From IMG/VR virus record IMGVR_UViG_3300025889_000087, positions 1-64,000 of that record: a DNA stretch of 64,000 nucleotides, one strand, 5' to 3'. Position numbers and translations under genes: made by a program. The DNA comes from a virus. This document shows, one piece after another, positions 7,367 through 30,975 of the stretch. Position 1 is the stretch's first letter; each line of letters starts with the position of its first letter. A model generated the notes under the pieces. The model made no database searches and was not told the DNA's origin. It was given only the letters and a program-made list of their open reading frames with translations.

Positions 7367-9163
7367 TCAAAAGCCCATTCTACGGTCCATATTATTCAAA
7401 CGCTCGTCCACGTTGCGTTCTTCGGGGGACTTTTCGGAATCACGCCGATCCTGCACCGTTTGACTCATGTGATGTTCACCCTCAAAGCGGTTCACGCGGT
7501 CAGGTGATTGGCCCGCACTACGGCGGCTATTGAGCCCCAATTGGGCATATCCCTGACGACGCAGGGGCGTAAGGTCTGTTCCGTTCGTGGTCGTCAGTGC
7601 TTCGGGAACCGGCACTGCGCCGTGGACGGCATCAGTCACAATGCGCTTTACGAGGTCGTCTGCCGTAAGCACGGGGAGCCAATCGCTCGTTTGCACTGGT
7701 CCACCGCCCGGTGGCGCAGGACCGCCTTCAGGACCCGGCCCCATTTGGGGAGGTGGGGGAGGTGCCTCCTTGTAGTCGAATTGGAGGTAGCCATCATCGT
7801 CACGCAGCCGCGCGTCATAGCCCGCCTGCTTCATTTGCAGCATATTGCGAATCGCCATTTCGTCGCGGCGCATCTGCATGATGTCGTCCTCTTCCTCGTG
7901 CGGCTTCAGGGTCATTTCCCATTCATCAATTTGAAATGCGGCGAGAAGAAGAGGGAACAGACGCCCGTTGTAGACGTTCTGACTGGCTGCAAGAGCGCGG
8001 TTTGTGACGACAATTTGCATACCCTCGTTGTTCAGGCCACCGCCGCTCACGTCGTTCATGAAGACGTTCGACACACCGTAAAAGGACGAGATGCGCTGCC
8101 GAATGTCGTCCTTAATTGGGATGTATTGCAGTTCCTCCAACGTGTCCATCATGCGAACGTATTCCAAACCACCGCGACCGCTCTCCGTTTCGACACCAAC
8201 TGTGGGGATGTATTGTGGGTCGCGCTCCAAATGCTCCTGAATGTTGCGAGCCGTGCGCTCGACCGTTTCAAGGTTGGACGACTTGATAACCATAACACCG
8301 CGAGGCATACGTCGCTTCTGATACGCCGCATACACATAATTGTCCATGGCGATTAGCGTGTTCACCTGACGCCACAGGGTCGCCACAGGCGAACGCCCAT
8401 ACAGTTTAGACGGCGACCATTTGCTCAAATGAATGACTTCGCCCTCGGTGTAGACCTGACCCGAACCAACACCTGCGAGATTCATGTAGTGGATAGGGAC
8501 GACGGGGAGACCAGTCTTCGGGCACTTCTCGTCCTTGTCGCTTGTGCGGAACGACCTATCGAGCAGACTCGTGTATTGCTTTCCACCCTTGACGCCACGC
8601 TTGTCCGCAACAATGCGCATGAAGATGGGGTCAGCGCGGGTAATTTCCTTGATGCGGTAGAACTGCGGCTTCCCCGTGTTCGGATCGACGAAGTATTCCT
8701 TGGTGAGAATGATGTATGCGTCGTCCACAATGTTGAGGTCCATTTCCACTTCGCGCATGACTTCAAGGAAAGACTGACCCATTCTGTTGTCTTCATTGAG
8801 CAGGGCATTGGCGTATTCCAATTGCCCATCATCGGCTCCACGCACTTCACCACCACACTTCATGCAATTGTCCACGTCACGCTTGTGCTCATTCTCACAT
8901 TCACGACACTTCTTGACGAACTTCGCTCGCCACTGCCAACCTTTCCTGAACGTCTCCGTTGCCAAGTGGTTGAGAATCGAGCGCAGAACGAGGCATTCGT
9001 ATGAAGCCGCATAAAGTGCGGGAATGGTGATGCCCTGAAGCAACGCCGGTTCCTGCACACCAGTGGTGAACAGGGGCATTTGCGGAGTCGGCGTTTCGTG
9101 CCGCTCCATGTCTACGCCAATTGCGGCAAAGAGACGATCAACCCGCTTCTTCTCATTCACCAT
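7367..9163 (-). CDS. Portal protein (with inserted Zn ribbons)
   Basis: DLNIVDDAYI, YGRSPV, MPRGVM and IRQRISSFYGV motifs of HK97-family portals; lies between terminase and protease; CRECE..CMKCG insertion. Confidence 0.88.
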   Translation of the reverse strand: MVNEKKRVDRLFAAIGVDMERHETPTPQMPLFTTGVQEPALLQGITIPALYAASYECLVLRSILNHLATETFRKGWQWRAKFVKKCRECENEHKRDVDNCMKCGGEVRGADDGQLEYANALLNEDNRMGQSFLEVMREVEMDLNIVDDAYIILTKEYFVDPNTGKPQFYRIKEITRADPIFMRIVADKRGVKGGKQYTSLLDRSFRTSDKDEKCPKTGLPVVPIHYMNLAGVGSGQVYTEGEVIHLSKWSPSKLYGRSPVATLWRQVNTLIAMDNYVYAAYQKRRMPRGVMVIKSSNLETVERTARNIQEHLERDPQYIPTVGVETESGRGGLEYVRMMDTLEELQYIPIKDDIRQRISSFYGVSNVFMNDVSGGGLNNEGMQIVVTNRALAASQNVYNGRLFPLLLAAFQIDEWEMTLKPHEEEDDIMQMRRDEMAIRNMLQMKQAGYDARLRDDDGYLQFDYKEAPPPPPQMGPGPEGGPAPPGGGPVQTSDWLPVLTADDLVKRIVTDAVHGAVPVPEALTTTNGTDLTPLRRQGYAQLGLNSRRSAGQSPDRVNRFEGEHHMSQTVQDRRDSEKSPEERNVDERLNNMDRRMGF

Positions 9164-17629: not shown

Positions 17630-18841
17630 TCAGCAATTCCACCTTTTCAGTGCAGCACCCTTCGGGGTGAGTTTCCCGCCCTTGCTCGTCGGGCCCTTGA
17701 CGCCGCTCATGCGGGCGCAGAACGACTTTCGCCGCTTTGCTTTCTCCGAACCGGGTTTGAGGGTAGACGGCTTCTCGGTGACGGGGGGCTTCAGGTTCGC
17801 GCCCTCTTCACGCTTGAACTTCGCACGGCCCTTGGCGTTGAGGCCACCCTCGCGGCTATGCCGGTTGGGGTTATAGCCGTGAAATGGCTTGTCCGATTTT
17901 TTCCGCAATACATCGGCCCATGAAATACCATTGATGTAAGACGCGGTGAACATACCTGATGGATCGGAAAGGGGCTGCTGCGGCTCACAAGCGTCCCATT
18001 CATCCAAAATGCTTTCTAACGCGGAGACGAACTCCCTGTGAATTGCGATTGATTGGCGGGCTCGTTGTTGATTGGAGGGCAATTCTTCCATCGCCCTCAT
18101 GCGTGCTTCGGGGTCCTCATAGCCCATGATGATTTTTTGCGCTCTCCCATTCAGCCATTCTTCATCCTCGGGAATGGTGTTCGTTAGGTAATGTTCAATG
18201 TTCATCTGAATGTTTTCCCAAAGTTCCGCGCAACTATACGTTTCCCAAGGGTCGAACAGATCGCGTGTGTAATCATCCAATCCTCGGATTTTCGCGCAAA
18301 AGTCGTCCGCAGCCGCAAGGGCTTTCATCCGTGCTTCTTCGCAACAAGGGTCGCCTGTATCAATACCGAGCGTGGCATCTTCGACATCTTCCCCGACATC
18401 CTCCCCGACATTTTCCAAATCAAATCCTTGATCGCCCATTGTTTGGCGGGGAAAAATAGAGCGAGAAGGCATGTAGTCGAGTCCCTCTTTCAACAAATCT
18501 TCACGAATGTAAAACGCCTTCGCCAGTGTGAGGCACGAATCACAGTCGCACATTTTCACCATGGTTGGCTTCCCTCCGACTCCTTGCGGTTTTGAACGCT
18601 TGCGGCGTGTCGCCGCCTTCTTCTCCTGCGGACTCATGCTACGGGTGGTTTTAGGGGTGTCGGAGGACACCTTCTTTGATGGGCGGCACTTCGGGTAGCC
18701 CCGAGAGGAAGTGTCGGCCTCATCACGCCCGCAGGGCGGGTGCTTCCCGTCCTTGTCCTTCCGGCTTACGTCCACCCATTCTTCCTTGAACCAACGCCGA
18801 AGGTCCTTTTCAATCAAAAGTTCGGAGAATGGGGCGGTCAA
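17630..18841 (-). CDS. Multi-domain protein with basic marine-phage modules (LRRWFKEEWVDV..CGR; RRKSFCARM..ALKRWNC)
   Basis: Motifs recalled from marine phage proteins (DUF5872/DUF6321-like from memory, needs an HMM check). The TTG start overlaps the upstream stop (TTGA). Confidence 0.6.
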   Translation of the reverse strand: MTAPFSELLIEKDLRRWFKEEWVDVSRKDKDGKHPPCGRDEADTSSRGYPKCRPSKKVSSDTPKTTRSMSPQEKKAATRRKRSKPQGVGGKPTMVKMCDCDSCLTLAKAFYIREDLLKEGLDYMPSRSIFPRQTMGDQGFDLENVGEDVGEDVEDATLGIDTGDPCCEEARMKALAAADDFCAKIRGLDDYTRDLFDPWETYSCAELWENIQMNIEHYLTNTIPEDEEWLNGRAQKIIMGYEDPEARMRAMEELPSNQQRARQSIAIHREFVSALESILDEWDACEPQQPLSDPSGMFTASYINGISWADVLRKKSDKPFHGYNPNRHSREGGLNAKGRAKFKREEGANLKPPVTEKPSTLKPGSEKAKRRKSFCARMSGVKGPTSKGGKLTPKGAALKRWNC

Positions 18842-19035
18842 TCTTTGCCCCCCTTCCTTTTCCACCCGCCGCCTTTGCTCTTATACCACTTCGCGGCCCA
18901 ACCGTTTGCGTAGGCTGAGGGATAGACCTTGAACTTGGATCGGGCCTTCGATTTTGCCTGCGACCACAGGCCGGGGTTGGTCGGAGCATTTTCGCCCTTA
19001 ACAACGGACCAAGCGATTTCAAAGGCTTCGTTCAT
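18838..19035 (-). CDS. Small basic protein with AFxxAW leader (PTNPGLWSQAKSKARSKFKVYPSAYANGW module)
   Basis: MNEAFEIAWSVVKG leader followed by a basic module seen in marine phages. Confidence 0.7.
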   Translation of the reverse strand: MNEAFEIAWSVVKGENAPTNPGLWSQAKSKARSKFKVYPSAYANGWAAKWYKSKGGGWKRKGGKD

Positions 19036-19262
19036 TGGTATTCCTCCCTTATATCATCAGGAAAGCCATAGGGGTCGTGAATCACTCTTCCGGTCAGGTC
19101 CACAAGTGAAGACTCAACGTGTTCATTCGGGTCGAAGCAATCAGCGCAAATGATCGTATCGCCATCCAAGTCGATGAAATCATCGGTTTCCTTTCCGCAC
19201 ACTTCACAATAATACGGGTCGCTCTTGACGACAGACCAAGCGGCTTCAAAGGCTCCGCTCAT
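19032..19262 (-). CDS. Small Zn-finger protein with AFxxAW leader
   Basis: MSGAFEAAWSVVKS followed by CEVC...CADC. Confidence 0.7.
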   Translation of the reverse strand: MSGAFEAAWSVVKSDPYYCEVCGKETDDFIDLDGDTIICADCFDPNEHVESSLVDLTGRVIHDPYGFPDDIREEYQ

Positions 19263-20107
19263 GCAATTGCTACGATGGCTTCCCCGTCTTTATGCGTGTC
19301 GGCTCGTATGTCGTTCACCACAGACAGTGCAGCGTCAAGATTACCCACGCCGGTATTCGCGCCCCATGCTCGCAAATGATGGACAAGAACTTCAGTCGCA
19401 AGATTCGCCCCGCTTTTTTCAGCAAACGGGCAGCCACCAAGACCACCGATAGAGGAATCGAATTGACTGATGCCTGCAAAGATGCCTGCACGAACCAGTC
19501 GGAGAGGCTTTGCTACATCACCCCTGTGGTGAAGATGGAGGGCAGGTTCGACTCCTGCTTCTCGTGCGAGTTGGGCGAAGAGCACCACGTCTTTCTCAGT
19601 CCCAACGCCCACAGTGTCGGCAAACACAACCGTGTTCCCGAACATAGCAGCATCGCGCACCACTGATCGAATAGTGCCTTCGGAAAACACACCGGAATAC
19701 GGAGAGCCAAACGCCATAGAAACGTAGACACGCACGTTTTCCTTGGGGTAGCCGTTGAGGAACGTCCACAATTCATGGACTTTTTCGCTGCGCGTCTTCC
19801 CCATGTTTTTCATGCTGAAATGCTCACAGGGGCTCAAAACGATATTGATTTTCTCGACACCGACTTTGAGAGCCCGCTCAAAACCTCGGCGGTTCATCAC
19901 CAACGCTGAGCCACGACCGCTAAACACTTCTTCTGCGTCTGCCATTTGCGGCACCAATTTTGGGTGCGCAAATGACACTTCTTCGACGTGAACCAAACCC
20001 GCGTCGTAAAGGCAGCGAATCAATTCTCGCTTTTTTTCGCTCGGCACAAAGTCGGACAACGATTGCAGACCGTCACGAGGACCCACCTCGTAGACGGTCA
20101 CGCGCAC
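19259..20107 (-). CDS. Hydroxymethylglutaryl-CoA lyase-like (DRE-TIM metallolyase)
   Basis: YEVGPRDGLQ, ADTVGVG, HLHH, GLGGCPFA and GANLATE motifs. The start may be the GTG at 20101. Confidence 0.88.
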   Translation of the reverse strand: MRVTVYEVGPRDGLQSLSDFVPSEKKRELIRCLYDAGLVHVEEVSFAHPKLVPQMADAEEVFSGRGSALVMNRRGFERALKVGVEKINIVLSPCEHFSMKNMGKTRSEKVHELWTFLNGYPKENVRVYVSMAFGSPYSGVFSEGTIRSVVRDAAMFGNTVVFADTVGVGTEKDVVLFAQLAREAGVEPALHLHHRGDVAKPLRLVRAGIFAGISQFDSSIGGLGGCPFAEKSGANLATEVLVHHLRAWGANTGVGNLDAALSVVNDIRADTHKDGEAIVAIA

Positions 20108-20535
20108 GAGAAGGGCCCCCTCAGACGGTTATAGACGAATGCTGCTTTAGGGGGAATTGCAGAATACCACTGTGCAAGCATTGGCGTTTGGGAATAGGAC
20201 AGGGACATTGGCTTGAATGCTTCTTGGAGAGCGATAAGATGCTCCGCGACTTCCTCACGCGGGACATTTGGTTGGGCCCATTCTCCTTCGGTGGAGAGAT
20301 CGAGAATGCACATTCGATAGAGAATGATGGCTCCGTTGGCTTCAGCCGCGCAATCGTCATGCGTATGCAGGCCGAACGCATCCAAGCCCTCTTTCCACAC
20401 CTTCACGACCTGCTCCAAGGCATCGCAGAAAAGGAGGGCGTCTTGAACCGTCTGAATGTTGTCGGACGACGCAATCAGCCGACCATGATCAGAATCCTTG
20501 AGCATGAGGGCCGCAATTGAGCGGTAGTCCGACAT
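20098..20535 (-). CDS. Hypothetical protein
   Basis: ORF in the operon; start set at MSDYRS. Confidence 0.55.
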   Translation of the reverse strand: MSDYRSIAALMLKDSDHGRLIASSDNIQTVQDALLFCDALEQVVKVWKEGLDAFGLHTHDDCAAEANGAIILYRMCILDLSTEGEWAQPNVPREEVAEHLIALQEAFKPMSLSYSQTPMLAQWYSAIPPKAAFVYNRLRGPFSCA

Positions 20536-20572
20536 AACCCTTCCTCGCATCATATGGTAATGAGGGAAGCGG

Positions 20573-21283
20573 TCATCCCTCGTCAAGAACCCCCGCTTCG
20601 GTGAGAGCATTTCGCAGGACGCGCCATTCTTCAGGGGACTTCTCGGAGAAGTGGGCCTGAATCACGGTCAGGACGTTCACCTGCTGCGACTCTTCAATGG
20701 TCGTAGCAGCCGTCAGGTATTCCGCCAAGTCGGAGAGCGTGTCGCGGATTTCACGGTGCAATTTCACCGCGGTGTCCAAGCCCTTGAAGTCAAGAATGCC
20801 CGACTCGACGCGCTCCGCATTCATCAAATCCATGTGATCGTTGAACACGTCGTTCAGCCGGTTCAGGTTCCGCTCAGTCCGCCGCATGGCGTCACTGACG
20901 CTCGTAATCGCGTTGGGAATGTTCTCAATCTGCGCTTGGCGTTGAATGATGGGCGCGGCGTGCCGTTCCATGTGGTGAGACACTGCCGTTTCCGTCATTT
21001 CCAATTCGACGGCCATGTCTGCAATACCGGCAATACCTCCGAGCACGGCTGCCTCAATTGCACTGCGCTCAGGATGGGTGCAAATGGGGCATTCAGAATT
21101 GCTTGCATTGTGGTATTCGCCGGAATGGCGGCGCATGTGTCGATGAGCCGTTCCTTCAGCCCACGACTGGTCGCGATCCAAATCCCCGACTTCAAGCAGA
21201 CCGATTCGCACGTTCTGCTCGTATTCATCACGGCGCGGGTGTTGGCAGAAGGGGCAATTGCGCCGAGTCTGCCTCCCCGTCAT
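20573..21283 (-). CDS. Tandem Zn-finger/HTH DNA-binding protein (terminase small subunit candidate)
   Basis: Two CPxCxHP...HxxRH repeats followed by a coiled coil. Confidence 0.5.
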   Translation of the reverse strand: MTGRQTRRNCPFCQHPRRDEYEQNVRIGLLEVGDLDRDQSWAEGTAHRHMRRHSGEYHNASNSECPICTHPERSAIEAAVLGGIAGIADMAVELEMTETAVSHHMERHAAPIIQRQAQIENIPNAITSVSDAMRRTERNLNRLNDVFNDHMDLMNAERVESGILDFKGLDTAVKLHREIRDTLSDLAEYLTAATTIEESQQVNVLTVIQAHFSEKSPEEWRVLRNALTEAGVLDEG

Positions 21284-21306
21284 GCTACATACACGCTCTC
21301 ATGCTC

Positions 21307-21459
21307 TTAAGGCCCTTTCGGGATGTGTTGATTGCAGAACATGCCGTTTTCACGGGTCGGTGTGGCCTTGCACTGATTGCCGGAGCGGGTCGTGGCTTGG
21401 CATTGGTTGAATACCTTCGGCTCATCACGAACCTCCTGTGTTTGTTGAAGGGCCTGCAT
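21307..21459 (-). CDS. C3H Zn-finger ORF (CQATTRSGNQCK...FCNQH); possibly a +1 frameshift extension of the upstream membrane protein
   Basis: Manual translation; not in the ORF track (50 aa from the ATG; frame is open back past 21492). Confidence 0.6.
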   Translation of the reverse strand: MQALQQTQEVRDEPKVFNQCQATTRSGNQCKATPTRENGMFCNQHIPKGP

Positions 21460-21481
21460 CGGAGGCAGGTATTGCGGCCCC

Positions 21482-21736
21482 TCAAGTCCGAAAGGATGCG
21501 AATTGCCGAATGGCGACCGAGAAAGTCAAAATGAGTCCAAAGAACGCGCTCATCATCTGCCCTGCCGAGAGGCTACCGCCCTTCCACACGAGGATAACGA
21601 AAGCCACGAGCATGAACGTGATGATGTAGATCATCGTTGCGCTTTCAACGAGCATCTTTCGTGGACTGAACAAATCCACGCTCGCACTGGCCCAATTCAT
21701 TTCAGCGGGACGTTCCTTTGCTTTTTCCATCGTCAA
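21482..21736 (-). CDS. Small two-TM membrane protein
   Basis: Hydrophobic helices MIYIITFMLVAFVILVW and MMSAFFGLILTFSVAI. Confidence 0.7.
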   Translation of the reverse strand: MTMEKAKERPAEMNWASASVDLFSPRKMLVESATMIYIITFMLVAFVILVWKGGSLSAGQMMSAFFGLILTFSVAIRQFASFRT

Positions 21737-22368
21737 ATCATCACCGCCCCTGCTGCACCGCCAACCTTAGCCGCAGTGGCACCAAAACCACCTTGGGTTT
21801 GAATTGCGTTGCCCATCATACCTCCAATCAAGTTCCCAAAGAATCCCGGCTGCTGCTGTTGCGGCATCATCCCACCCTGCTGATGAGCCATGAGGAACAT
21901 TTGGATTTGCTGCTGATTGGCCGTAATAGAGGACTGTGCCGCCTGTTGCACCTGCTGAAGTGTAAGGGCCAAGTTCTCCTGCGAAAGCGTCTGCAATTGG
22001 TGAGGCATTGACGCAAAGTCCACCTTCATGTGGTCGCCTTCCTGCTTAAGCGTTGCAGCGGCGAAGAACTCCTTGAGCGAGAGCATGACGACTTCGCTAA
22101 TCAAATCCATGACAAGGCCCATGTTTTGCGTCACAACGAATGCCGACACGGGATCATGAAGGCCGAGAAGGCGGGAAGTGGCGATGACCGGATCGTTGGC
22201 TTGTTGCTGCATCATGGGGTTCTGAGCAAAAGCCATCATAGCGGTCGGGTCTTGCCCCCATCCCATGGGTTGCTGCTGCATCATGCCCATGCCACCCATG
22301 CCACCCATGCTACCAACGCCGAATTGCTGCGGCTGCGGTTGGTTGTTGTTTCTACCGAAAAGTCCCAT
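21733..22368 (-). CDS. Gln/Gly/Met-rich protein
   Basis: 211-aa ORF with a GAGGTGA SD upstream. Confidence 0.7.
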   Translation of the reverse strand: MGLFGRNNNQPQPQQFGVGSMGGMGGMGMMQQQPMGWGQDPTAMMAFAQNPMMQQQANDPVIATSRLLGLHDPVSAFVVTQNMGLVMDLISEVVMLSLKEFFAAATLKQEGDHMKVDFASMPHQLQTLSQENLALTLQQVQQAAQSSITANQQQIQMFLMAHQQGGMMPQQQQPGFFGNLIGGMMGNAIQTQGGFGATAAKVGGAAGAVMI

Positions 22369-22377
22369 TCATTCACC

Positions 22378-23274
22378 TCATGCGGTCAGCATTGTTTCAG
22401 GCACCGCCATTTGCCTTTGCGGATTCAAACCAACTGCTACTTGTTGGCTCATTTGCTCCATTTGCAGTGCTCGCAAATCAAAGGTAATCGTGACGAGATC
22501 GGCAACGCCAGTCATCGGGTTCGGATGTTGGTTGATGACTACACCCTTTGAATGTTGGGCATCCATTTGCACCATGCGGAAGAATTGCTCGTATTTCATC
22601 AGCGACTCCGGCGTAGAGCGATTCTGCTTTGTGCTGCCACTCATACCGGGAACACGGAGGAAACGGGTGCCCTTTGACGTAGCAGGGGCGAAGCCGTCTT
22701 CAGCCAACTGGTGCTCTTCGACAAGACACCGCAACGTGTGGTAGATGTGCAGGTGGGCGGGACATAGCGTCGAGTTCATCTCATCCCCGTGGTCCCCGTG
22801 TGTGCGTGCGTGAGGCTTTCGTGCCTGCCCCGTGTCCTCGTCAAACCAATAAATGTCGGCCAATGAGAGTCCGGTGCGTTCATCTGAAATGTGATTATAG
22901 GCATTGTCGCCCTCAAGGAAACGGCGCACGTCCACGCCGCAACAGGCACATTCGTGCGCTGCGTTATAACGATACACCTTGAACAGACCAAGGTTGTAAT
23001 TTGGTGGACGGAGAGCCTTTCGCAGAATCTTGATGTTCTTACGGCGAGCCTTACCCGGATTCTTTGGATTGGTCTTGAGACGCACTTCAACTGTCGGCAT
23101 CATCATGTCTTCGTCCATGCCCGAACCCTGAGATCCCGCGCTCGCCATTTCAGCCCGCTGCTGCGCTTTGAGCAATTCAAAGGCCACGCCGGTATGTCCG
23201 GCGAGGGAGCGCAGTTCATCGTCGGAAAGACCTTTCAGGCTCATGCCGCCGCCCATAAACGGGATGAATTGCAT
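22378..23274 (-). CDS. Hypothetical Zn-binding protein
   Basis: CACC...LCPAH; 298 aa. Confidence 0.65.
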   Translation of the reverse strand: MQFIPFMGGGMSLKGLSDDELRSLAGHTGVAFELLKAQQRAEMASAGSQGSGMDEDMMMPTVEVRLKTNPKNPGKARRKNIKILRKALRPPNYNLGLFKVYRYNAAHECACCGVDVRRFLEGDNAYNHISDERTGLSLADIYWFDEDTGQARKPHARTHGDHGDEMNSTLCPAHLHIYHTLRCLVEEHQLAEDGFAPATSKGTRFLRVPGMSGSTKQNRSTPESLMKYEQFFRMVQMDAQHSKGVVINQHPNPMTGVADLVTITFDLRALQMEQMSQQVAVGLNPQRQMAVPETMLTA

Positions 23275-23324
23275 GACTTCCCCGTTCTATGTGAGGGCTG
23301 ACATAATGAAAAGGCTTCCGCTGC

Positions 23325-24053
23325 TCAAAGCAAGTCTACGGTATCAATCACTGCTCTTTCCACATTCAATCCAAATTGCGCAGCAATTGCTTCTACGTTA
23401 GTCGCCACCGCGGCTTTCCTCAGCCTCCGCAATTCATGTTGAAAAGGGAGGACTAAGGGGTGCTGCCGCTTGAAGCCATGCTCCCACATGTTCGCTGCCT
23501 GAAGATCCCACCAAAGGTCCATTTTATTCAGCAAAAGGCAGACCACCTTCGGTTTGAACATCTTCGCTCGTTTGCGTTGAACGCGGTTCAGCGTTTCGGG
23601 AATGTGTTTGTTCGTTATCAAGTCCACAATGTATTGAAAACCCGCCACGGCTTCTTGGCGAAGGTATTCCGAATAGAGAATCCGATGGTCGATGACATAG
23701 AACACAATGCTCACGTTGCGTTCGACCATATCTTCAGCCCACAGGTTCCAATAACGGCTTTCACCGCCAACGTCGGCTGAAGTCACGGGGACCTTCCGCC
23801 CATTCCACCGGACCTGCTTCTTTGTGCTATGAGGGCGATCCACCTTCCCGTGCCGCACGGGGTGGGTTGTCCGCAATTCGTGAGGAATGGGCTCGATGTC
23901 GCCGGGAACGGTCAAGAATTGGTCGAGAGTCGTTTTACCGCTAAGGGAGGGGCCATAGACACCAAAGCGGTGAGGGCGAATGATGCGATAGAGGTATGCC
24001 GCCAATTGCGCCGAGCCCATCAGGACGTGGCCGACGAAGATCCAAGACGACAT
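23325..24053 (-). CDS. Small Ras-superfamily GTPase, Arf-like
   Basis: G1 GPSLSGKTT, G2 RTT, G3 DVGGE(SRYWNLW), G4 LNKMD, G5-like IAA; N-terminal hydrophobic helix. Confidence 0.85.
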   Translation of the reverse strand: MSSWIFVGHVLMGSAQLAAYLYRIIRPHRFGVYGPSLSGKTTLDQFLTVPGDIEPIPHELRTTHPVRHGKVDRPHSTKKQVRWNGRKVPVTSADVGGESRYWNLWAEDMVERNVSIVFYVIDHRILYSEYLRQEAVAGFQYIVDLITNKHIPETLNRVQRKRAKMFKPKVVCLLLNKMDLWWDLQAANMWEHGFKRQHPLVLPFQHELRRLRKAAVATNVEAIAAQFGLNVERAVIDTVDLL

Positions 24054-24062
24054 GACTTCCCC

Positions 24063-24290
24063 TCAACCGCGGTGAAACATCCAGTCCCACACGGTCGTTG
24101 GGGTCACGCTCAAAAATGCGTCGAGGCCAACCATGACAAGGAACGTCAGGCAATTGCCGACGACAAAGGAGAGAATAGCCTTGAAGGTCCACGTCATGCG
24201 CTCAAGACGCCGCTCATATGCGTTTTCAGCAAGAATGCTCGCCATCGCTTCCGCTTGGCGTTCCTGCTGCGTGTTGAACGGCCACGCCAT
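24063..24290 (-). CDS. Small single-TM membrane protein
   Basis: AILSFVVGNCLTFLVMVGLDAFL. Confidence 0.7.
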   Translation of the reverse strand: MAWPFNTQQERQAEAMASILAENAYERRLERMTWTFKAILSFVVGNCLTFLVMVGLDAFLSVTPTTVWDWMFHRG

Positions 24291-24299
24291 GAATCCCCC

Positions 24300-24731
24300 T
24301 CACTGGGCGTCCTTCTTTTCACCTTCGTTTTGTTGAGGGACGCCGAATTGCGACATGCCAATGCCATAAGGAGGGTATTCATTTCGCTGCGTGTCCTTCC
24401 GAATACGTCGTTGCTGAAGGCGGGCCTGCTGCTGATACCACTTGTCGTAGCGTGACTCTTGGGCAAACTCCGCACGCATGGCGAGCGAATCACGAAGACC
24501 ACCGACGTGAAAGAGCACCATAGAAATGCACAGGAACCCGAAGGTAATGAGGCCGTATTGCAGCCCCATTTCAGCGGGGCCTGCATCCGGCAAATACCAG
24601 TCGAGATGGCTCAGCGTGACTGATACGCCTACGAGCAACGATTGCCACAAAAGCATGGCGATCAGGTTGATGTCAATACGGTTCTCATCCAATGCGGCCC
24701 ATGGTGGTATGGGCGGGTTGTTTTGCTGCAT
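24300..24731 (-). CDS. Two-TM membrane protein with charged C-terminal tail
   Basis: LIAMLLWQSLLVGVSVTL and YGLITFGFLCISMVLF. Confidence 0.7.
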   Translation of the reverse strand: MQQNNPPIPPWAALDENRIDINLIAMLLWQSLLVGVSVTLSHLDWYLPDAGPAEMGLQYGLITFGFLCISMVLFHVGGLRDSLAMRAEFAQESRYDKWYQQQARLQQRRIRKDTQRNEYPPYGIGMSQFGVPQQNEGEKKDAQ

Positions 24732-24874
24732 TATTTTGCCCCCTTGTCTTGTTGATGAGCAAAATAGAACGCAAGAACGTGATTGACGAAGGAGGACTTC
24801 GACTCACGCCCACGCGCGGCTTCCATCTTTGCGAACAAATCGTCCGCCATAACGACGGAGACGTGTCGGCTCAT
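24731..24874 (-). CDS. Ribbon-helix-helix DNA-binding protein
   Basis: MSRHVSVVMADDLFAKMEAARGRESKSSFVNHVL fits the CopG/RHH pattern. Confidence 0.7.
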   Translation of the reverse strand: MSRHVSVVMADDLFAKMEAARGRESKSSFVNHVLAFYFAHQQDKGAK

Positions 24875-24912
24875 CAGCCCTCCCACGCTTGTTATGCCTA
24901 TGAAGGTTCTCA

Positions 24913-25992
24913 TCAGTGATATAGCACAGACCACCCAACCGCGAATGCGTCTTGGGATTTGCCGAACAGTTTTCCCTGCTCCATGTATCGTTGTTGTGGG
25001 TAGTGCTTGAACCAGTCCAAACCGGGAATGTTGGCATACGCAATCATTTCAGGTCGAGGGCCTCGTTCCGCTCCTTTGCCCCCGCTTCTGTCCATTCGTG
25101 TATTCAACACAGTGTCGAACCCCTCGGCGTCGTAAAACGGGCGAGCAAATGCTGAATTGAAAGCAACAACCGGAAGCCCCTGCCTCGCCAAGCCCCCCGC
25201 CCATTCGGCCATTGGTTGCTGAAGATCGTCAAAGCCACCCGGCGTGTAGGTCCCCCGTTCCATGTAATACGGCGAGTCAAGAACGAGGAAATCCTCTTCG
25301 GGGATAATGAGGCCGTTTTCCATCACTTCTTCAATGCCCATGTTGCGCAAATCCCAACCCTGCATCAATGGTGCGTAGTGTGAATAATCCCAAGATGGGG
25401 GATATTTGATGGGGCTTCCGTATGGGAGATCGGTGTAATTTCCGAAATCACCCCGCGCACCCCCCTGCCAACCTGATTGTTGCATCATCAGCCACATTTG
25501 CGCCATCAGCATTTTCTCTTCGGGACTCCTTTCTTCTTGAGGGGGCAGGTTGAGCATAAGATCATTCACTGAGCCCTGACTCGGGGGCCATGAACCCATC
25601 CCCGTCGGCGTTCCGCCGCGAAGCCTCTCATAGTATGTCTCCTTGTCCACGACATCATCTTCATTGGTGAATTGCGACCAATCAACGCTAAATCCGTCAG
25701 GATTCTGAATGTGAGCGAACGCATTTATGAGGTTCGGGTTGAGGTCGGACAACAAAGCCCGTTCGGGTTGCAGGTTCAGGGGAATGTTCCCACCGCCAAG
25801 GAATGGATCGACAAGGCGACGATGACGACCCACACGATTGAATGCGTCACGGAGGGGGCCAATGTAGTGAGGTCGGCCCTTGCTTCCTTGCCACCTTAGC
25901 GGGGAAGGGACGCGGGTTTTTCCCGTAATGTCTTGCATGGCTGCCCACGCTGCTTTTTCAGGTGTCATTTTGCGACCGCGAACTTCCATCAT
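24913..25992 (-). CDS. Dam-like (D12 class) N6-adenine DNA methyltransferase
   Basis: PSPLRWQGSK, DPFLGGG, SDLNPNLIN and catalytic-like LDSPY (DPPY variant). Confidence 0.8.
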   Translation of the reverse strand: MMEVRGRKMTPEKAAWAAMQDITGKTRVPSPLRWQGSKGRPHYIGPLRDAFNRVGRHRRLVDPFLGGGNIPLNLQPERALLSDLNPNLINAFAHIQNPDGFSVDWSQFTNEDDVVDKETYYERLRGGTPTGMGSWPPSQGSVNDLMLNLPPQEERSPEEKMLMAQMWLMMQQSGWQGGARGDFGNYTDLPYGSPIKYPPSWDYSHYAPLMQGWDLRNMGIEEVMENGLIIPEEDFLVLDSPYYMERGTYTPGGFDDLQQPMAEWAGGLARQGLPVVAFNSAFARPFYDAEGFDTVLNTRMDRSGGKGAERGPRPEMIAYANIPGLDWFKHYPQQRYMEQGKLFGKSQDAFAVGWSVLYH

Positions 25993-29403: not shown

Positions 29404-30975
29404 ATGATGCCGAACGGTCAGCAGCCAATCTTCATTCTCCGCGAAGGAACCGACCGGAAGCACGGTCGTGTTGCACAGTCAAACAACATCGCCGCGGCCC
29501 GTGCCGTGGCTGACGCCGTGCGAACCACCCTTGGTCCCAAAGGCATGGACAAAATGTTGGTTGATGAGGGCGGCGATGTCATCATCACCAATGACGGCGC
29601 GACCATTCTCCGCGAAATGGACATCGACCACCCCGCGGCCAAGATGATCATTGAAGTCAGCAAAACGCAGGAGCAGGAATGTTTTGACGGGACAACCACC
29701 GCCGTCGTGCTTAGCGGTGAATTGCTGAAGCAGGCTGAGGAATTGCTCTCACAGGGCATTCACCCGACCACCATTTGCGACATTTTCCGCAAGGTCGGGA
29801 CCGAGGCCGTGAAGGCGTTATCCGGCTTCAGCAGCCATTCCGACGAAGCCATGTTGCTTAGCGTGGCTCGCACCGCCCTCACCGGAAAGTCGTCGGGCGA
29901 CCTGAAAGAGCACCTCGCCTCCATTTGCGTTGAAGCCGTTGAGCGACTCGACAAGCAGGACGGCTCAATCAACCTTGACGAAATTATGGTGGTGAAGGCC
30001 CTCGGTGGAGAAGCGACGGACTCATCCCTCATCCAATCCATCGTTCTCGACAAGGAACGCGCTCACCCGTCCATGCCGAAGACGCTGACGAACGCTCGTA
30101 GGGCCATCTGCGTCCTGTCCTGTCCGCTCACAGTGCAGACTACCACTATGGATGCAAACATTCAGATCACCGACCCGTCTCAAATTGCCGCGTTCTTGGA
30201 GCAGGAAGAGGCTTCTTTGCGCGAAATGGTGGATAAAATCGCCTCGTCAGGCGCGAAAGTCGTTGTGTGTCAGAAGGAAATTGACGACCTCGCCAAGCAC
30301 TACCTCGCCAAGCGACACATCATCGGCGTGGAGAAGGTCAAGAAGTCGGACATCGAAGCCCTGTCCCGCGCCACTGGCGCGGCCATTGTTGGCAACCTCG
30401 ATGACCTCGACACTGCCGCCCTCGGAACCTGCGACAACGTAATGGAGCAACGGGTGGGAGAATTGCCCATGATGTTCTTTGAGGGCTACGAAAAGAACCC
30501 ACCAGTCACACTCGTGCTTCGTGGCGGCACTGCGCCGTTCATTGAAGAAGTCGAGCGAGCCTTTGATGATGCCGTGGGCGTCGTCAAGGTGGCCCACGAA
30601 GACGAACAAGTCGTCCCCGGTGGTGGTTCCGTGTTCGCTGCCCTCGCTCAGTCCATCCTCACGAATGCAAACACCAAGGTGGGGCGCGAACGCATGGCTG
30701 CCGAGGCTTTCGCTGACGCGCTTCTCGTAATCCCACGCACTCTCGTGGAGAACGCGGGTCTTGATCCGGTGGACGAGATTATGACACTGCGTTCGGCCCA
30801 CGCTGAAGGGAAGGTGACGTGGGGTGTGGACGTGTTCGCGGGTGGCCTCATGGACATGGCCGAGAGCGACGTGTGGGAGCCACTGCGCGTTGTGTCGCAG
30901 GCCATCAAGTCAGCCGTCGAAACGTCAATCATGATTCTGCGCATTGACGACGTGATTTCGTCCAAGAAGGCGTGA
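29404..30975 (+). CDS. Group II chaperonin (thermosome subunit)
   Basis: [48 protein letters not shown] and ILRIDDVI. Confidence 0.97.

Follow-up and report, generated by a model that had tools for sequence, protein, structure and literature searches.

The DNA analysed here, hereafter the window, is the first 64 kb (positions 1 to 64,000) of the 96,109-base IMG/VR virus record IMGVR_UViG_3300025889_000087, rated 91% complete, and it holds on its minus strand, at 20573-24874, a tightly packed row of genes in which an Arf-like, very divergent small GTPase lies among small membrane proteins. We consider it likely that this cassette is a membrane-bound GTPase switch of a magrovirus. As the best explanation of the whole, to which we assign a probability of roughly 0.4, the switch would have a late job in weakening or reshaping the host membrane for virion release. 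The GTPase switch at the membrane is well supported, and the egress role is a guess from gene position and composition.

The row consists of the following genes, given in their order, from a ribbon-helix-helix-like (RHH-like) gene to a gene for a zinc/helix-turn-helix (Zn/HTH) coiled-coil protein. Transmembrane (TM) spans were called from the 19-residue Kyte-Doolittle mean, for which the usual cut-off is about 1.6 (1.5-1.6 in our scans), and lineage 1 is the first of three virus lineages described below.

24734-24874, minus strand: RHH-like protein, 47 amino acids (aa), head of the cassette (open reading frame, ORF; lineage 1 only)
24300-24731, minus strand: 2-TM protein, 143 aa, with a charged, Gln-rich C-terminal tail (ORF and hydrophobicity scan)
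24063-24290, minus strand: 1-TM protein, 75 aa, with N-terminus M-A-W-P-F (ORF and hydrophobicity scan)
23325-24053, minus strand: Arf-like small GTPase, 242 aa, with an N-terminal amphipathic helix (motifs, model and profiles)
22378-23274, minus strand: orphan Cys/His (probable Zn) protein, 298 aa (ORF and alignment)
21733-22368, minus strand: Gln/Gly/Met-rich protein, 211 aa (ORF and alignment)
21482-21736, minus strand: 2-TM protein, 84 aa (ORF and hydrophobicity scan)
21307-21459, minus strand: Zn ribbon, 50 aa, in a variable slot outside the conserved core (DUF5763, E 6.9e-6)
20573-21283, minus strand: Zn/HTH coiled-coil protein, 236 aa, after the cassette (ORF and alignment)

All the ORFs named in the original prediction (RHH-like, 2-TM, 1-TM, GTPase, Cys/His, Gln/Gly-rich and the second 2-TM) were present on the minus strand. 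Neighbouring cassette genes are separated by between -4 and +50 nt; the 50-nt gap precedes the Cys/His gene, and the other spacings are 9 nt or overlaps of 1-4 nt, as where the start of the 84-aa 2-TM gene overlaps the stop of the Gln/Gly-rich gene by 4 nt. The putative operator TGACA-N4-TGACA has three one-mismatch matches in the window, where 4.1 would be expected, and none of them is near the cassette; the repeats within 20400-25200 were only short and chance-like.

By its fold and motifs the 242-aa protein is, far beyond chance, a small GTPase. G1 is GPSLSGKT (residues 34-41), G3 is DVGGE (residues 94-98, within DVGGESRYWNLW), G4 is NKMD (residues 176-179) and G5 is AAQ (224-226), which reads SAQ in most relatives; these four motifs are invariant in 23 aligned relatives and across the three lineages. 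A regular expression for the order G1-G3-G4 matched every one of the 80 loci from the first scan and 74 of the 80 lineage-3 loci examined (154/160 in total). Both properties by which we recognised a small GTPase of the Ras superfamily, that is, G1, G3 and G4 in this order with an SA-like G5, and an alpha/beta fold, were found in the window protein. Its AlphaFold2 (AF2) model (pLDDT 72, pTM 0.74) has the strand and helix order of small GTPases, to which it adds an N-terminal helix (residues 3-25), a poorly modelled stretch (residues 50-96, pLDDT <50) and extra helices on both sides of NKMD. A Foldseek search with this model gave 44 PDB matches at E <= 0.001, nearly all of them small GTPases of the Ras superfamily.

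Within this superfamily the protein leans towards Arf, as the original prediction had proposed: both the closest folds and the profile matches belong to the Arf family. After re-alignment with VIA, 49 of the top 50 entries were Arf, Arl, Asgard ArfR or Rag/Gtr chains (Z 14.2-12.5), the first Rab being at rank 50 with Z 12.2. The profile of the viral GTPase family matched best, among PDB sequences, the Asgard ArfR GerdArfR1 (8OUN, E 1.1e-5), followed by Arl8, Arl6 and Arf1, and the alignment to 8OUN takes in the helix before the P-loop. The Arf switch II signature (DxGGQ, with a Trp seven residues on) is present, with Gln replaced by Glu in the window protein, where switch II is DVGGESRYWNLW; most relatives have D[IV]GGQ..[YF]WN[LM]W. 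The catalytic position was Gln in 53, Asp in 11, Glu in 2 and His in 2 of the 68 distinct sequences of lineages 1 and 2, and in lineage 3 it was Gln in 26 and Glu in 23. Since it varies in this way across the family, the Glu of DVGGE is neither a defect nor an oddity. The matches of the 23 relatives to Pfam were all weak, with 11 for Arf (best E 1.3e-4), 10 for Ras, 8 for Roc and 5 for Gtr1_RagA (PF04670, best E 3.4e-6).

A search of 1.84 billion representative sequences with the GTPase returned only 67 matches. We scanned ten distant full-length matches against Pfam, and the only one above a cut-off was P0114, which belongs to the Arf family (60.7 bits, the cut-off being 22.3) and to which hhalign aligned the viral GTPase family with a probability of 98.6%. 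Scans for the distant relatives P0114, P0068 and P0102 gave nothing. One lineage-3 relative is automatically named "GTPase SAR1 family protein" in its JGI record.

An amphipathic N-terminal helix before the G domain is the defining trait of Arf proteins (bioRxiv 10.1101/2024.02.28.582541), and the AF2 helix of the window GTPase (residues 3-25) corresponds to it. The hydrophobic helix that the original prediction saw at this end is indeed there; it is amphipathic, with a hydrophobic moment of 0.4-0.7 and a mean hydrophobicity of 0.0-0.3, and it is not transmembrane. The best 19-residue Kyte-Doolittle mean of the helix, 1.0-1.3, lies below the transmembrane range, and no 19-residue stretch of the GTPase attains 1.5, so that the hydrophobicity scan found no span in the protein of the kind that would anchor it in the manner of SR-beta.

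We compared the GTPase with the systems that it most resembles. The nearest folds are Arf and Arl chains (Arf1, Arf6, Arl3, Arl6, Arl8, and the Asgard ArfR GerdArfR1, 8OUN/8OUM), with Z 13-14 and a root-mean-square deviation of 2.5-3.0 over 141-152 residues, and the viral protein has in common with them a GKTT P-loop, DxGG[Q] with W at +7, NKxD, SA[QK], and an amphipathic helix directly before strand 1. It differs from them in being longer (242 aa versus about 180), in its helix of about 22 residues, in the extra helices flanking NKMD, in an insertion in the switch I/interswitch region, in a catalytic position that varies among Q, D, E and H, and in that its relatives reach the Pfam Arf model only below threshold. 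Its carrier, moreover, is a tailed virus, and the sampled genomes of the host group, which is not Asgard, gave no Arf matches. Rag/Gtr proteins (Gtr1_RagA; LokiRagO, 8YL2) share the DxGGQ-type switch II, and their chains score Z 12.7-13.7; however, the viral protein ends with its G domain (helix 5, residue 242), without the C-terminal roadblock domain, and it has the N-terminal amphipathic helix that Rags lack. Sar1 and SR-beta likewise have a membrane element before the G domain, and a His at the catalytic position, as in Sar1, occurs in a few viral relatives, but the viral helix is not hydrophobic enough for the TM anchor of SR-beta and no coat or SRX-like partner is recognisable in the cassette. 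In Atabeyarchaeia, which are Asgard archaea, Arf-like GTPase genes lie in a stretch where genes linked to mobile elements are enriched (PMC11529989). Those Arfs cluster with Asgard and eukaryotic Arfs and are in a cellular chromosome (PMC11529989), whereas the viral family is far more divergent, and complete tailed-virus genomes carry it in a fixed cassette alongside membrane proteins.

The original prediction was to be given up if the cluster were not conserved as a unit, and we found a five-gene core (2-TM, 1-TM, GTPase, Cys/His and Gln/Gly-rich) whose order is kept in all three lineages. We scanned IMG/VR with the GTPase family alignment and obtained 84 relatives, of which 80 were fetched (lineages 1 and 2); for lineage 3 there were at least 140 more contigs, of which 80 loci were examined, giving 160 fetched contigs overall. 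Many of the contigs from the first scan are 90-108 kb long. Lineage 1 accounts for about 51 of the 80 loci of that scan, and tblastn located every cassette gene there at fixed distances. In lineage 2, which comprises the remaining loci, the GTPase is at most 41% identical and tblastn finds only the GTPase, Cys/His and Zn/HTH genes, while the ORFs follow one another in the order TM protein with a coiled-coil tail, 1-TM, GTPase, Cys/His, Gln/Asn-rich, 2-TM and Zn/HTH. The GTPase of lineage 3 is 27-29% identical, and there the core comes directly after genes for a prohead protease, the major capsid protein and a SAP-domain protein. The link of the cassette to the Zn/HTH gene is seen in lineages 1 and 2 and is absent in lineage 3. 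In one lineage-2 locus (L079:8647-8877) a 76-aa ORF that looks like AbrB/SpoVT lies between the GTPase and Cys/His genes, so this junction tolerates insertions, and in another (L066:488-7099) a single ORF of 2203 aa stands directly before the cassette.

The membrane proteins around the GTPase, also part of the original prediction, were borne out by spans in the 143-, 75- and 84-aa proteins. The 143-aa protein has hydrophobic spans at 23-41 and 61-79 and gave no family match in Pfam, PHROGs, NCBIfam or PADLOC; an equivalent protein of 141-210 aa occupies the same position in all three lineages. The span of the 75-aa protein is at 38-56, and a single-TM equivalent of 73-95 aa lies directly before the GTPase in each lineage. 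The 84-aa protein (spans 32-50 and 58-76) is present in lineages 1 and 2, and no separate gene for it was seen in lineage 3.

The Cys/His protein is the best conserved product of the cassette, with 60-78% identity in lineage 1 versus 42-69% for the GTPase. C109, C171, H174, H176, H179 and R157 are invariant; the protein carries a CxxC, whose second Cys becomes Asp in lineage 2, and CPxHLHxxH, and the CxxC...CxxH pair is kept in lineage 3. It had no match in Pfam, PHROGs, NCBIfam, PADLOC or PDB sequences, and fold searches were equally empty (Foldseek, best E 1.2; Atlas, best score 0.80; VIA wide search, best Z 4.6, for a short helical piece only). We rejected an HNH nuclease, as the Asp-His pair is not conserved, and also an ArfGAP zinc finger, which is a C4 finger with a 16-residue spacing, as the spacing here is CxxC-x27-58-CxxH. 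The Gln/Gly-rich protein has low-complexity ends rich in Gln, Gly and Met, a conserved central domain and a glycine-zipper-like C-terminus (a PGFFGSLLGG-type tail); an equivalent of 190-239 aa follows the Cys/His gene in all three lineages, and no PDB match was found. Gln-rich low-complexity regions occur in three cassette proteins.

Across lineages, the 1-TM and Gln/Gly-rich proteins share an N-terminal start of the form M-x-W-(P)-F or M-G-[LW]-F (MAWPF, MWPF and MGWLF versus MGLFG, MGWFS and MVWPF), which, to judge from the sequences, could be a docking peptide. By sequence reading, this shared start is at the following positions.

24276-24290, window, minus strand: start of the 1-TM protein
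22354-22368, window, minus strand: start of the Gln/Gly-rich protein
L066:9610-9630 and L066:7752-7770: the shared start in a lineage-2 locus

The description of the operon as led by an RHH regulator holds for lineage 1, in which homologues of the RHH-like gene were at the same place in 50 of the 80 loci of the first scan; the gene is confined to this lineage, and the RHH call is without model support. The protein has a strand-helix-G-x-x-S-helix pattern, invariant in the alignment, and on this pattern alone it may be an RHH protein. Only one of ten relatives reached Pfam RHH_5, weakly (E 0.16), a PDB profile search gave nothing relevant, and the protein matched phrog_7252, a family with no assigned function, at E 0.006. 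Its gene most likely starts at 24874, because GGGAGGG lies 5 nt before that ATG; a longer, 67-aa ORF reaches 24934.

At the other end of the row, the 50-aa Zn ribbon matched DUF5763 just under the Pfam cut-off and was found by tblastn in 2 of the 80 loci; elsewhere its slot is filled by zero to two unrelated small ORFs. In some loci (L002:6294-6545; L034) the slot behind the 2-TM gene again holds a DUF5763-type Zn-ribbon ORF, which in L002 lies in another frame and overlaps that gene at its 3′ end. The 236-aa Zn/HTH protein was present in 79 of the 80 loci at a fixed distance from the cassette. It has two CxxC...HxxxH/HTH repeats with invariant Cys/His pairs, a coiled coil and a conserved C-terminal tail; the second repeat matched the GerE HTH at E 0.018, and there was a weak match to the ArsR HTH. 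Read from these motifs, it is probably a DNA-binding regulator or a packaging accessory, and not a membrane part.

The source of the window matches the magroviruses, which are tailed viruses infecting Marine Group II/Poseidoniales archaea, both in being a tailed virus of about 100 kb and in carrying a thermosome gene (PMC5434244); a thermosome subunit was reported for magrovirus groups A and D (Philosof et al., PMC5434244). Marine Group II archaea, like the viruses that infect them, rank among the most abundant of the surface ocean (PMC5434244). A Pfam scan of the window proteins located the portal and terminase genes, and the cassette lies about 9-12 kb upstream of these two, on the same strand.

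7367-9163, minus strand: phage portal
10397-11839, minus strand: large terminase (TerL)
29404-30975, plus strand: group II chaperonin (thermosome), E 7e-171

A Dam-type methylase and helicases are also encoded in the window. The assignment to Poseidoniales is supported by a single-cell assembly of this group, in which a contig of 106 kb carries a GTPase of 49% identity and, about 10 kb from it and on the same strand, a TerL of 76% identity. The GTPase family profile found no match in 200 other Poseidoniales genomes, nor did Pfam Arf (PF00025) in 101, and so there is no sign of a recent capture from the host. By tblastn, the GTPase, Cys/His and Zn/HTH proteins had no match among 50,697 GenBank phage records, and among the searchable literature no magrovirus paper mentions a GTPase and no paper describes the cassette. 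A GTPase of 41% identity is also on an 8.2-kb contig (NZQM01000063.1) binned in a Parvibaculum metagenome-assembled genome, which is most likely a mis-binned magrovirus fragment.

For the switch itself we propose the following mechanism. As in Arf proteins, binding of GTP would free the N-terminal helix, by which the GTPase would dock on the host's cytoplasmic membrane from the inside; at this site it would meet the 2-TM and 1-TM proteins and recruit the Cys/His and Gln/Gly-rich proteins, and hydrolysis of GTP would reset or time the assembly. The most likely late job of such an assembly would be to weaken or reshape the host membrane, so that virions could leave a cell that has no murein. We know of no established exit route of tailed archaeal viruses from their hosts, and for this step a conserved core membrane cassette around a small GTPase offers a concrete candidate that can be cloned. 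We know of no treatment of Arf-type membrane switches other than as a trait of eukaryotes and Asgard archaea, and a deep virus-borne relative of Arf in another archaeal phylum bears on the spread of such switches.

The functions first proposed for the cluster were lysis, egress or superinfection exclusion; they are suggested by the membrane features of its proteins and by the position of the cassette, which runs in the direction of the head and packaging genes or lies in their midst. That the cassette serves egress or virion release we put forward tentatively, as somewhat doubtful. The boldest form of this proposal, in which an ancient, virus-only Arf-like branch and its dedicated membrane partners make a machine, timed by GTP, for remodelling or opening the archaeal membrane at virion release, we consider unlikely; if true, it would be the first case of egress driven by a GTPase in a prokaryotic virus, and it would mean that viruses carry Arf-style membrane switches beyond Asgard archaea and eukaryotes. 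Holin-type lysis cassettes, for example S-R-Rz of lambda, sit just before terminase genes, and the present cassette resembles them in its small proteins with one or two TM helices and charged C-terminal tails and in its late position upstream of the packaging genes. It differs from them in that no holin, endolysin or spanin family was matched and no wall-degrading enzyme was seen, and we know of no lysis cassette that contains a GTPase. The 2-TM and 1-TM proteins matched none of the holin families of Pfam, PHROG and NCBIfam, their likeness being the generic one of one or two TM spans and a charged tail. The statement that the window has no endolysin or holin agrees with the Pfam scan of 30 window proteins, a partial check, in which no lysis enzyme was found.

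Several results weigh against our preferred explanation, a membrane-bound GTPase switch acting late in virion release. The window GTPase passes no Pfam model and matches no GTPase family at E <= 1, which falls short of membership in the Arf family proper; the protein is Arf-like and very divergent, and is not filed as a member of PF00025. In the VIA ranking the Z gap between Arf and Rab is only about 2, a small spread, so that the model-based preference for Arf is a lean and not a proof. The helix/interswitch toggle of Arf proteins may not operate here, because of a low-confidence insertion of about 20-25 residues in switch I/interswitch, which Arf proteins do not have and which carries an invariant motif of its own (TVPGDI-PIP...RT-H). 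Furthermore, searches of Pfam, PHROGs, NCBIfam and PADLOC linked no cassette protein to a holin, lysin, pore-former or coat family, and a position among head genes would fit a role in the virion, in an entry complex or in assembly as well as it fits lysis.

An entry complex would be formed if the cassette proteins were packed in the head or tail and then made or gated a DNA channel in the host membrane, with the GTPase at its cytoplasmic face. Insertion into the host membrane on infection is known from ejection proteins of certain tailed phages. The lineage-3 cassette is inside the head gene block, that of the window is co-directional with the packaging genes, and the Gln/Gly-rich protein has a hydrophobic C-terminal tail that resembles a glycine zipper. 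We nevertheless hold such a complex to be improbable, as no cassette protein matches a structural family of PHROG, integral 2-TM proteins would be difficult to package in soluble form, and we know of no virion-packed GTPase in tailed viruses. There is a similarly small probability that the GTPase and its partners organise an assembly site, marking a patch of membrane for capsid assembly or DNA packaging, or tethering a virus factory, without any breach of the membrane. Arf-type GTPases act by recruiting effectors to membranes (bioRxiv 10.1101/2024.02.28.582541), which would suit such an organiser. The position upstream of TerL and portal, the Gln-rich low-complexity regions and the fixed place of the cassette beside the Zn/HTH coiled-coil protein, a putative DNA-binding protein, in lineages 1 and 2 would suit it as well, but this last link is missing in lineage 3 and no similarity to a scaffold, packaging or partition protein was found.

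It is very unlikely, in our judgement, that the cassette is a device for host take-over or exclusion, which would alter secretion, motility, division or uptake, or block a second infection, release being done otherwise. The predicted membrane location of its proteins and its restriction to viruses, with no relatives in the host genomes scanned, agree with such a device; against it, the cassette proteins matched none of 5027 defence-system models (PADLOC), and the cassette runs in the same direction as late genes. Genes for exclusion tend to stand alone, to evolve fast and to be patchily distributed, and a unit of five to seven genes kept in three lineages is more in keeping with a core step of the virus cycle. 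Finally, the neighbourhood could be due to chance, with the flanking membrane genes unrelated to the GTPase, which would act alone on a soluble target, for instance in nucleotide sensing or translation. This we find hardly credible, since the gene order is kept at 27-41% GTPase identity with completely changed flanks, the genes are 9 nt apart or overlapping, and the GTPase carries a membrane-seeking helix of its own.

Just downstream of the cassette, the late genes include an HMGL-like gene (HMG-CoA lyase family; 19259-20107, minus strand, Pfam E 4.7e-15), possibly an auxiliary metabolic gene touching isoprenoid lipid precursors. Next to it, at 18838-19262 on the minus strand, small proteins start with an A-F-E/D-x-A-W-x-V-V-K leader (MNEAFEIAWSVVKG, MSGAFEAAWSVVKS), and a protein with a leader-like start (MNRAMEIGWAILKN) occupies the variable slot of the cassette in another locus (L005:10357-10623).

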